From IMG/VR virus record IMGVR_UViG_2563366840_000014, positions 1 through 24,668 of that record: DNA of 24,668 nucleotides. One strand, written 5' to 3'. The first letter of the stretch is position 1. Every line of letters begins with the position of its first letter. A model generated the notes under the pieces. It saw only the letters and a list, made by a program, of their open reading frames with translations, searched no databases and was not told where the DNA came from. The position numbers and the translations under genes are program-made. This document shows, piece by piece, positions 17,677 to 21,433 of the stretch. This DNA is from a virus. Taxonomy: Duplodnaviria; Heunggongvirae; Uroviricota; Caudoviricetes.

Positions 17677-17707
17677 TTTTTTTGCAAATCACAAAGTCCA
17701 TTTAATG

Positions 17708-17731
17708 AGCCTCGCGATGCGGGGCTTTTTT
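17708..17731 (+). terminator. Rho-independent terminator after the lysis cassette
   Basis: Stem AGCCTCGC / GCGGGGCT with loop GAT, followed by TTTTTT. Confidence 0.6.
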
Positions 17732-17878: not shown

Positions 17879-18409
17879 ATGAAGTACCCAACAGTTATTG
17901 TCAATGGTGTGTCCGTTCGTGTTGATGAGGATGGACGCTACAACTTAAACGATCTCCATGCAGCAGCAGTTGCAAATGGAGAGGCTACAGAGCAACAGCG
18001 CCCAAGCCAGTTTTTGCGTAGCGCGCAGATAAAACGCTTCATAAAAGCACTGGAGGCCAAAGTGCAAAAAAGCACTTTGGAACAAATTCAGCCACTTAAA
18101 ATAATCAAAGGTGGTGCAGAACCAGGTGTGTGGGGTGTTGAACTTCTGGCAATCAGATATGCAGCATGGATTAAGCCGGAATTTGAAATCGAAGTTTATG
18201 AAGTTTTCAAAACGGTTGTCCGTCTCGGCGTTGGCGCAATGTCCCGTCTGAATAGAATCGATCACATCATCAATACTGAAACCAAAGCGATAAGCCAGTG
18301 CGCAAGCCAAATGGCTAAGTGGGGCGTTGGTGGGCGAAAAAGATTGCTTCATGTTGCACGTGAGAGAGCGGCAAATGAAGTGCAAATGTATTTGCCCGGA
18401 ATGGTGTGA
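17879..18409 (+). CDS. KilA-N domain protein (second paralog)
   Basis: N-terminus (VIVNGVSVRVDEDGRYNLNDLHAAAVA...) is clearly paralogous to the 12890-13699 protein. Confidence 0.65.
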   Translation: MKYPTVIVNGVSVRVDEDGRYNLNDLHAAAVANGEATEQQRPSQFLRSAQIKRFIKALEAKVQKSTLEQIQPLKIIKGGAEPGVWGVELLAIRYAAWIKPEFEIEVYEVFKTVVRLGVGAMSRLNRIDHIINTETKAISQCASQMAKWGVGGRKRLLHVARERAANEVQMYLPGMV

Positions 18410-18724
18410 TTTCGCAGGTTAATCCAGTTTTTGCATTACGGCAGTACAGCGAAACAACCCAAGCCAGTAAGTGGGGAAATAACACTGGCAGCCACTGAAA
18501 GATGAACCTCCAGCCTTATGGCAAAAAAGATTCTTTGTGGTGGCGGACTGATGGAAAGACATCGGTTATTGCAGAGGCCATTCAATGAGTGGTCTCGACA
18601 ATGGCTTATACCCTGCACGGGATAACTTAACTGATATCCCTTTTAACGGATAAACGGAGCCAATAATGGCAGAGAATGTCGGCATTATGGCAGTGAAATT
18701 TGGATAAATCGGAGATTAGTACAT

Positions 18725-19075
18725 ATGCCGCCACGAATCCCAAAAGCCTGCCGTGTTCGCGGTTGCCGCCATACCACCACAGATCCGTCAGGCTATTGTG
18801 AAAGCCACAAAAGCGAAGGCTGGAAGCAATACAAACCTGGACAATCCCGTCATCAGCGCGGCTACGGTTCGAAGTGGGACAGTATCCGCGTGCGCATATT
18901 GAAGCGTGACAAAGGCCTGTGTCAGTTATGTCTGCGTGCTGGTGTGGTGCGTGAGGCGAAAACCGTTGACCACATCATTCCTAAAGCGCATGGCGGCACT
19001 GATGCCGACAGTAATCTGCAGAGTCTGTGCTGGCCCTGCCATAAGGCGAAGACGGCCCGTGAACGGTTAAAGTGA
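18725..19075 (+). CDS. HNH endonuclease (terminase-associated)
   Basis: Cys-rich N-terminus and ...VDHIIPKAHGGTDADSNLQSLCWPCH... HNH motif; sits directly upstream of terS. Confidence 0.8.
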   Translation: MPPRIPKACRVRGCRHTTTDPSGYCESHKSEGWKQYKPGQSRHQRGYGSKWDSIRVRILKRDKGLCQLCLRAGVVREAKTVDHIIPKAHGGTDADSNLQSLCWPCHKAKTARERLK

Positions 19076-19101
19076 TAATAATTCTCAACTGTCTGAGGGG
19101 A

Positions 19102-19161
19102 GGGGCGGGTCAAATCCCTGTGACCTGACGTCTTCCGGACTGCCCGCCCCATCGTTTTTTT
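19102..19161 (+). other. GC-rich compound hairpin with T-run (terminator and/or cos-region candidate)
   Basis: GGGGCGGG (19102-19109) pairs with CCCGCCCC (19143-19150); inner palindromes GGTCA...TGACC and GACGTC; followed by seven T. Confidence 0.4.
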
Positions 19162-19200
19162 ATACCCGCGAAAAATGAAATTTAACCAGGAGTGCCGCAT

Positions 19201-19686
19201 ATGGCTGGAACGGCGGGGCGTTCCGGGCGTCGCCCCAAGCCAACGGCGCGCAAGGCGCTGGCCGGAAACCCCGGCAAGCGAGCCCTGAACAAAGATGAAC
19301 CTGTTTTTACGCCCATCAAAGGCGTTGAGCCACCGGAGTGGTTCGCAGAAGAAAATCTCCCTCTCGCCACGATCATGTGGCAACTGACAACTAAAGAACT
19401 CTGCGGTCAGGGCCTGCTGTGCGTGACTGACCTCGCGGTGCTTGAGCGGTGGTGCGTGGCCTATGAGTTCTGGCGACGTGCCGTGAAAAATATTGCCAGC
19501 CAGGGCAACACCATTACCGGTGCAATGGGCGGTATGGTCAAAAACCCGGAGCTGACCGCCAAGAAAGAACAGGAGTCCGAGATGAGCAGCACGGGGGCAA
19601 TGCTCGGACTCGACCCCAGCAGCCGCCAGCGTCTGATTGGCCTGGCGGGGAAGAAGAAAGCCACTAACCCGTTTCTGACAATCTGA
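19201..19686 (+). CDS. Terminase small subunit (P27 family)
   Basis: [14 protein letters not shown]... N-terminus typical of P27-family TerS; AGGAG RBS. Confidence 0.75.
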
Positions 19687-19699
19687 AAATCATCGAATC

Positions 19700-21433
19700 A
19701 TGAGCCGGAAATCTTACCCCAACGTAAATGCTGCCAATCAGTATGCCCGGGATGTCGTGCGCGGAAAGATTGTGGCCTGCCAGTTTGTGATTCAGGCCTG
19801 CCAGCGCCATCTTGATGACCTGATGGCGGAAAAAAGTAAGTCGTTTCGTTACCGCTTCGACAAGGATCTGGCTGAACGGGCCGCCAAATTTATTCAGCTG
19901 TTGCCGCACACCAAGGGTGAGTGGGCATTTAAACGGATGCCCATCACGCTGGAGCCGTGGCAGCTCTTTGTGATCTGCTGCGCGTTTGGCTGGGTCAATA
20001 AAGGCTCCCGGCTGCGCCGCTTCCGTGAGGTGTATACCGAAATCCCCCGTAAGAACGGCAAATCGGCAATCTCTGCCGGTGTCGCCCTGTATTGTTTTGC
20101 CTGTGATAACGAGTTCGGCGCGGAAGTGTATTCCGGTGCCACGACGGAGAAACAGGCATGGGAAGTCTTTCGTCCGGCGCGACTGATGTGTAAACGCACA
20201 CCCATGCTGACGGAAGCGTTCGGGATTGAGGTTAACGCCTCAAACATGAACCGTCCGGAGGATGGTGCGCGTTTTGAACCGCTGATCGGTAACCCCGGTG
20301 ATGGTTCATCACCCCACTGTGCGGTGGTGGATGAATATCACGAGCACGCCACAGATGCGCTTTACACCACAATGCTTACCGGGATGGGGGCGCGACGTCA
20401 GCCACTGATGTGGGCTATCACTACCGCCGGGTACAACATTGAGGGGCCGTGCTACGACAAACGGCGGGAAGTCATCGAGATGCTCAACGGTTCGGTACCC
20501 AACGATGAACTGTTCGGGATCATCTATACCGTTGACGAAGGTGACGACTGGACCGACCCGCAGGTGCTGGAAAAAGCCAATCCAAATATTGGCGTGTCGG
20601 TTTATCGCGAATTTTTGTTAAGTCAGCAGCAGCGTGCGAAAAATAACGCCCGTCTGGCAAACGTCTTTAAAACAAAACACCTCAATATCTGGGTGTCGGC
20701 GCGTTCGGCGTATTTCAACCTGGTGAGCTGGCAGAGCTGCGAGGATAAATCACTGACTCTTGAGCAATTCGAGGGGCAGCCGTGCATTCTGGCCTTTGAC
20801 CTGGCGCGTAAACTGGATATGAACAGCATGGCGCGACTTTATACCCGCGAGATTGACGGTAAAACGCATTACTACAGTGTGGCCCCGCGTTTCTGGGTAC
20901 CGTATGACACGGTGTACAGCGTCGAGAAAAATGAAGATCGACGGACAGCCGAACGCTTTCAGAAATGGGTGGAAATGGGCGTTCTGACCGTTACCGATGG
21001 TGCGGAGGTGGATTATCGCTACATCCTCGAGGAGGCCAAAGCGGCGAACAAAATCAGCCCGGTCAGTGAGTCACCCATCGACCCCTTCGGGGCGACCGGG
21101 TTGTCACATGACCTTGCTGATGAAGACCTGAACCCCATCACTATCATTCAGAACTACACCAACATGTCCGACCCGATGAAAGAGCTGGAAGCGGCAATTG
21201 AATCGGGGCGCTTTCATCATGATGGCAATCCCATCATGACCTGGTGTATCGGTAACGTGGTCGGCAAAACCATTCCGGGTAACGATGATGTGGTGAAGCC
21301 CGTCAAAGAGCAGGCGGAAAACAAAATCGATGGTGCAGTTGCGCTGATTATGGCGGTTGGCAGAGCCATGCTGTACGAGAAAGAAGACACGCTGTCTGAC
21401 CACATTGAGTCCTATGGGATCCGCTCGCTTTAA
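19700..21433 (+). CDS. Terminase large subunit
   Basis: 577-aa ORF directly after terS with ATPase and nuclease-type layout typical of HK97-like TerL. Confidence 0.85.

Follow-up and report, generated by a model that had tools for sequence, protein, structure and literature searches.

The segment at positions 19095-19185 of the window, meaning the whole 24,668-nucleotide stretch of viral DNA analysed here, is very probably the cos site of an SfV/SfI-type packaging module, HK97-style and HNH-dependent, in an E. coli lambdoid prophage. An earlier note on this DNA had drawn attention to a GC-rich compound hairpin between the HNH gene and terS, and had read it as part of the cos region, as a terminator, or as both. 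The cos proposal has been borne out, as the right arm of the hairpin lies in the 10-nt cohesive end mapped in phage SfI (PMC3636060). Moreover, the mapped ends of phiE125, phi1026b and phi644-2 (PMC2920897) and the HK97 record junction fall into the same alignment columns. A cos site of the SfI/SfV type is in itself already known. The fixed multi-block cos architecture shared across families may be new.

The element and its genomic setting

The inverted repeat is present in the sequence as had been claimed, with its arms, spacer, inner palindromes, T-run and position between the HNH gene and terS all confirmed. The left arm, GGGGCGGG (19102-19109), and the right arm, CCCGCCCC (19143-19150), are separated by a spacer of 33 nt (19110-19142). 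The inner palindromes are formed by GGTCA (19108-19112) with TGACC (19121-19125), and by GACGTC (19127-19132). The right arm is followed by ATCG and then by seven T at 19155-19161. The whole element lies within a gap of 125 nt between the HNH open reading frame (18725-19075) and terS, whose ATG is located at 19201.

The window represents an E. coli lambdoid prophage with the gene order HNH - cos - terS - terL - portal. Q and the lysis cassette precede this module, with genes for a Q-like antiterminator, two holins, an endolysin and Rz upstream of cos. The HNH endonuclease gene, on the plus strand, matches Pfam HNH (PF01844, E = 2e-16) as well as PHROG HNH families, and is annotated as a terminase accessory nuclease. 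In its product of 116 aa, a zinc ribbon (CxxxxC...CxxH) at the N-terminus is followed by an HNH domain at the C-terminus. This product shares 38% identity over 65 aa with HK97 gp74. Almost its entire length is homologous to HNH genes located beside the terminase in cos phages of Gram-positive bacteria, the phi3626 gp50 region among them. The small terminase gene terS (19201-19686, plus strand) belongs to the Terminase_4/P27 family (Pfam PF05119, E = 4e-21) and is 98% identical to SfV orf1. It is followed on the same strand by an HK97-like large terminase gene, terL (19700-21433), with the Pfam domains TerL_ATPase and TerL_nuclease and 26% identity to HK97 gp2 (E = 2e-29). Additionally, the Q-like antiterminator gene (14668-15462) is closely preceded by two further genes, namely a second KilA-N-type regulator (phrog_129, 12890-13699) and a 331-aa HNH endonuclease (phrog_96, 13701-14696).

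Mapped ends and the 10-nt cohesive end

The region from the HNH gene to terS is 94-97% identical to that of the Shigella serotype-converting phages SfV, SfI, SfII and SfIV (Megablast, phage records). Several of the linear records of these phages start inside or directly after the element, those of SfV and SfIV inside it. Run-off sequencing of the ends of SfI virion DNA, compared with the prophage, has revealed a gap of 10 nt, 5'-TGCCCGCCCC-3' (PMC3636060). The right arm is identified with the cohesive end because this 10-mer equals positions 19141-19150 (plus strand) of the window, i.e., the right arm and two further bases. The SfI record ends with ...GGACTGCCCGCCCC and restarts with GTCGTTTTTTT (also given as GTCGTTTTTTTATACCCGCG), exactly at this cut. 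Between 19095 and 19215 the window and SfI differ at 19116 and 19151 only, and position +1 is A in the window and in SfV and G in SfI. According to the SfIV paper, cos is identical across SfI, SfII, SfIV and SfV. These phages share with the window the same 10-nt end, the order HNH-cos-terS-terL and a 98% identical TerS, whereas the early, lysis and KilA-N region of the window prophage is different.

A run-off gap in place of an overlap implies recessed 5' ends and therefore 3' overhangs, and we infer a 10-nt 3' overhang for the SfI group and for the window prophage alike. The ends of the latter would be those of its about 98% identical relatives. Overhangs of this kind are documented for HK97, with 10-nt 3' ends (PMC9410871, PMC11331095), and for the phiE125/phi1026b/phi644-2 group, with 10-nt 3' overhangs published as 5'-CGCCCGCTTC-3' (PMC2920897). 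A lambda-type cos with Nu1/gpA and a 12-nt 5' overhang was also considered, and was rejected in view of the Terminase_4 TerS, the recessed 5' ends implied by the SfI gap and the presence of an HNH gene.

Conserved architecture of the cos region

Regions upstream of terS were collected from annotated phages, from 80 bacterial genomes and from HK97 relatives. The bacterial genomes were found with a TerS alignment (5-sequence seed), their TerS identities ranging from 98% down to 49%. Anchored on the motif CCGCG[AT]AA (CCGCGAAA in the window), the collected regions gave an essentially ungapped alignment of 86 unique sequences, reduced to 85 or 83 when one to three outliers were left out. The 83 related cos regions cover TerS identities from 98% down to about 33%, and the taxa aligned are Enterobacterales, Pseudomonas, Burkholderia, Comamonas and Moraxella. 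Because the alignment was built around the anchor motif, it accounts in part for the conservation of that motif; this does not apply to the other blocks. Five blocks at fixed spacing were recognized: a G-rich box (G-box) with TCAAAWC, a spacer, the cut region GAC^N10^(G/A)TC (^ marks a cut boundary), a T-run, and AYACCCGCGAAA followed by A/T-rich sequence.

The G-box, on the last-packaged side of cos, is a conserved subsite that holds the left arm. It reads GAGGGGAGGGGCGGG plus TCAAATCCC in the window (19095-19118, plus strand) and has the consensus GGGGAGGGGSGGG followed by TCAAAWC (also given as TCAAATC). Its GGG core (19103-19105) is G in 82-83 of the 83 relatives, with AAA/T following at a fixed distance. 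The adjoining spacer (19119-19137, plus strand) is constant in length and variable in sequence, with low column information. It holds the TGACC and GACGTC of the window, and these inner palindromes are not conserved; some clades carry other palindromes of their own. The cosN-like cleavage dyad GAC^TGCCCGCCCC^ATC occupies 19138-19153. Of its conserved triplets, the GAC upstream of the C-rich 10-mer is kept as G in 57, A in 81 and C in 77 of 83 sequences, and the downstream triplet shows G in 49/83 (A in 22), T in 59/83 and C in 62/83. The phi1026b record junction and the phiE125/phi644-2 overhang fall into the same 10 columns as the SfI gap. The record of Pantoea phage AH07, whose TerS aligns at 34% identity, likewise has its start at this boundary. 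Record junctions are placed at the right-hand boundary of the dyad in SfI, phi1026b, HK97 and AH07.

The T-run at 19155-19161 (plus strand) corresponds to +5..+11 of the left genome end. Its TTTT core (19157-19160) is T in 80-83 of the 83 relatives and is kept even where no stem precedes it. Only one of the relatives examined lacks the anchor motif CCGCG[AT]AA. The top-strand cut consistently lies 15 nt upstream of the first base of the motif, as mapped in SfI and phi1026b and as given by the AH07 record start. In the window, TACCCGCGAAAAATG is located at +13..+27, and ACCCGCGAAA(A/T) is near-invariant at +14..+25. The segment ACCCGCGAAAAATGAAATTTAA (19164-19185, plus strand; +14..+35) is, by conservation and position, a candidate cosB-like recognition site of the small terminase. 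On the same two grounds, the T-run together with ACCCGCGAAA may be read as the TerS-side part of cos. The T-run and CCGCGAAA were also considered as a 5'-UTR or translational element of terS. This was rejected, as these motifs lie about 760 nt from terS in three viral contigs (L263, L270 and L288), where a terminator and a KilA-N gene are inserted between the motifs and terS and the motifs still adjoin HNH and the cut site. A displaced start of terS is likewise seen in Xenorhabdus and Morganella loci.

A near-identical cassette of terminator and KilA-N gene is found upstream of HNH in the window, where the KilA-N gene (17879-18409) follows a terminator at 17707-17727 (GAGCCTCGCGATGCGGGGCTT plus T-run). 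Its occurrence both upstream and downstream of cos points to a mobile moron cassette able to land on either side. Satellite or orphan copies of cos were not evident, since all 54 motif-bearing viral contigs have HNH and/or terS nearby or reach a contig end. One 5.6-kb contig labelled MAG: Bacillota bacterium (L099, JAEWTL010000102.1) carries a 98% identical enterobacterial phage terS with cos, and is probably mis-binned or a contaminant.

The G-box, the nick dyad and the HNH protein

The distance from the G-box (GGGGAGGGGCGGG with TCAAAWC) to the cut downstream of it is fixed. The box is common to phages with small terminases unrelated in sequence (HK97 gp1 vs Terminase_4) but homologous TerL and HNH proteins, and is considered as a candidate cosQ-like site or a candidate site for TerL/HNH. 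The cut site itself is two-fold symmetric, GAC^N10^GTC, with an RTC triplet on the 3' side of the nick in each strand. The left nick boundary is GAC^CG in most relatives and GAC^TG in the window. Terminase-adjacent zinc-ribbon HNH nickases are known to nick CG^GT (AC^CG), RAC^CR, S^RT and related sites, with the shared cores listed as ACCG, ACYG and RTCG (Xu and Gupta, PMC3592412). The HNH protein of the window has the same zinc ribbon and HNH layout as these nickases, and the dyad GAC^(C/T)G-N-(A/C)^(G/A)TC, of the general form AC^(C/T)G ... N^RT, matches their published preferences AC^CG, ACYG and S^RT. From protein layout and site, the HNH protein may set or make one or both of the cos nicks, and the G-box may serve as a cosQ-like termination or cleavage signal read by TerL/HNH. 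This combined proposal is tentative, and its chances are put slightly below even. No description of a role for the G-box or the nick dyad was found in the literature searched.

Just upstream of the G-box, a further dyad-like sequence, TGATAATAATTCTCA (19073-19087), overlaps the HNH stop codon. The pattern [AG]TGA[GT]A occurs in this stretch in 38/85 relatives and the full dyad pattern in 18/85, its position shifting by a few nt, and HK97 carries AATGAGAATGAATCGCATCA at the corresponding place. The dyad may be an additional protein site associated with cos, for a host factor or for the terminase. It matches 13 of 15 positions of the Fur-box core TGATAATCATTATCA. Two loci (L108 and L119) have the exact core AATGATAATCATTATC here, and other relatives, including HK97-like and Pseudomonas loci, have ATGAGA-N5-TCTCAT. 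Among the HK97 relatives L182-L257, cos regions that otherwise hardly differ have a poly-G of 7 to 12 G, situated about 55-35 nt upstream of the cut. Such variation suggests homopolymer slippage or a tolerance of length change on the 5' side.

Hairpin, terminator or chance

The compound hairpin as a conserved structural unit did not hold up in the comparison. Only the SfV/ST64B clade has the perfect 8-bp repeat. Pairs in the register of the window are Watson-Crick in only 31-87% of the aligned sequences, and the central C-G pair is kept in 38%. With 81 unique sequences the RNAalifold consensus was empty, and with the enteric subset it comprised only 4 bp at -2 kcal/mol; covariation between the arms is absent across the alignment. 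It could nevertheless be argued that a DNA hairpin or cruciform, or two inverted sites for one protein, is needed by the terminase or the HNH protein to recognise or cut cos. In its favour, 52/81 relatives fold with at least 5 bp between the G-box and cohesive-end regions, and some complementarity, with a mean duplex energy of -18.7 kcal/mol, is present in most of them. However, arms taken from different phages are equally complementary (-18.52 kcal/mol, vs -18.69 for own arms), 25% of permutations do at least as well as the true pairing, and the pairing register is not conserved. Furthermore, the G-box of the window recurs in L108 together with another cohesive end, CGCCGCCTCA, and the poly-G box of HK97 is unable to pair with CCGCCGCC. 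A spacer of 33 nt also makes cruciform extrusion unfavourable. A required hairpin or cruciform is thus judged highly improbable, and a conserved RNA or DNA hairpin was rejected on the empty consensus and on a permutation test without self-preference. Since G-boxes and C-rich cohesive ends pair about equally well in whatever combination, the 8-bp complementarity looks like a by-product of composition, with a G-rich box facing a C-rich cut site, and not like a selected hairpin.

The terminator reading fared somewhat better, although not as the main function. In the SfV/SfI-type clade, the element might also act as a Rho-independent terminator that halts read-through from the HNH side by RNA polymerase not modified by Q, e.g., in the prophage. 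The minimum-energy fold extends the stem through an A.A mismatch and a G-U pair (GG.GGGGCGGG / CCCGCCCC.UC) at about -25 kcal/mol, so that the GC-rich stem ends 1 nt before the U-run of seven. Moreover, 24/83 relatives satisfy a relaxed terminator rule, and a Xenorhabdus clade has a canonical hairpin with a 9-bp stem, an 8-nt loop and U7 around its cohesive end (L130). On the other hand, the stem closes an interior of 33 nt and not a compact short loop, and the fold of the 91-nt RNA is unremarkable (-29 kcal/mol, z = -0.81 vs dinucleotide shuffles). A consensus terminator scan with loops of 3-8 nt did not call the element because its loop exceeds 8 nt. The T-run is kept in the 59/83 relatives without terminator geometry, and neither covariation nor a consensus fold was obtained. 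A canonical terminator is also already present upstream, at 17707-17727. Late genes of lambdoid phages are transcribed from the Q-dependent promoter, and RNA polymerase has to pass through cos before it arrives at the terminase and head genes. With the Q-like antiterminator and lysis genes upstream, the same would apply in the window, where late transcription would have to read through the site to reach terS. A stem followed by T7 does exist, and an additional termination role is regarded as unlikely but conceivable; termination is not the main function because terminator-like geometry occurs in only 24/83 relatives while the T-run is nearly universal. The T-run is, on comparative grounds, best read as the conserved A/T-tract of cos and not primarily as a terminator tail.

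Several other structures were observed alongside. In the Xenorhabdus loci L121-L141, e.g., L130, the canonical terminator hairpin, GACCCAAGG-N8-CCTTGGGTC plus T7, contains the predicted cohesive end (GAC^CGCCACCTTG^GGTC) within its loop and 3' arm, and the start of terS is shifted downstream by about 100 nt relative to the window. A palindrome at 2245-2268 of the window, AAAACCCGCC-N4-GGCGGGTTTT, is flanked by A and T runs and looks like a bidirectional intrinsic terminator. Rfam returned nothing at the element. Its sole match in the window is sub-threshold, at 18422-18493 (plus strand) in the gap between the KilA-N and HNH genes, where Proteo-phage-1 sRNA scores 23 bits vs a gathering score of 42 (E = 0.13).

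A further reading would have the inverted repeat and the T-run arise by chance and serve no function. Perfect 8-bp inverted repeats with spacers of 3-40 nt are indeed common, with 52 overlapping matches in the window vs 16 +/- 6 in first-order Markov simulations. An all-G/C repeat of this length is rare (1 seen in the window vs 0.12 expected), as is one followed by a T-run (0.24 expected in the window). Pure chance is contradicted by the fixed spacing of all blocks across Enterobacterales, Pseudomonas, Burkholderia, Comamonas and Moraxella and by the coincidence of the right arm with a mapped cohesive end, and can practically be dismissed.

Relation to known packaging systems

HK97 resembles the window in several respects. 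HK97 and its relatives have a G-box (poly-G(7-12)+ATCAAATC) upstream of the cut, and HK97 shares the nick layout GAC^N10^GT(C/T), in the form GAC^CGCCGCCAAA^GTT. An A/T-tract and a CCCG motif follow about 15-30 bp downstream, terS starts about 50 nt past the cut, and TerL and HNH are homologous. In HK97, the binding site of TerS has been mapped to CTAACCCGATTTTTT at +15..+29, and recognition of the A-tract relies on DNA shape (PMC11331095). This site overlaps in position with the near-invariant motif of the window group. The left half of the HK97 cos is thus laid out as in the window, but its right half differs, with CTAACCCGATTTTTT in place of TTTTTTTATACCCGCGAAAAA as the downstream motif, and its G-box is unable to pair with its own cohesive end. 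HK97 TerS (gp1) shows no detectable sequence similarity to the Terminase_4 TerS of the window. A direct transfer of the HK97 TerS-DNA structure is therefore unjustified at the protein level, and only the positional analogy was kept.

The phiE125/phi1026b/phi644-2 group of Burkholderia phages has a homologous TerS with about 51% identity, and the G-box, T-run and CCGCGAAA at the same distances. Its 10-base 3' extension, CGCCCGCTTC, occupies the same alignment columns. It differs from the window in having another cohesive end, a run of four T and its own spacer palindrome, GAAGGC-GCT-GCCTTC. Phage lambda has a cos of three parts (cosQ-cosN-cosB), with an element upstream on the end-of-packaging side, a nick site of dyad symmetry, and a region bound by TerS downstream (PMC4669245). 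The window shares this three-part logic and the location beside the terminase genes, the cosQ-like role of the G-box being a positional analogy only. Lambda differs by its 12-nt 5' overhangs, a Nu1-type TerS, R sites and IHF, and by having no HNH protein and no sequence similarity. Rho-independent terminators resemble the element in the GC-rich stem followed by a U-run, but the element has a 33-nt interior in place of a short loop, its structure is unconserved and late transcription would have to pass through the site.

Proposed working and significance of cos

During lytic growth, TerS and TerL, together with the HNH protein, would cut concatemeric DNA at the 19095-19185 cos. The bottom strand would be nicked after GAC (19140^19141) and the top strand 10 nt downstream (19150^19151). 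These staggered nicks would leave the 10-nt 3' cohesive end TGCCCGCCCC, and packaging would then run rightward into terS. The left arm would represent the core of the conserved G-rich box on the end-of-genome side, and the T-run with the following ACCCGCGAAAAA the candidate TerS-side recognition region. Within this scheme, the allotment of each nick to a nuclease, TerS binding at ACCCGCGAAA and any role of the G-box are what we infer from the comparison.

The annotation of this stretch is thereby settled, with 19095-19185 as the packaging site and 19141-19150 as the predicted sticky end. The cos marks the true ends of the phage genome and the starting point of packaging, and of any cos-dependent transduction of adjacent DNA. 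For Terminase_4/HNH prophages of Proteobacteria, the succession of G-box, about 20-25 nt, GAC^N10^GTC, T-run and CCGCGAAA provides a rule that locates cos and predicts its 10-nt end. Furthermore, the G-box and the nick dyad offer two candidate subsites in the HK97 model as well, where only the TerS site has been dissected.
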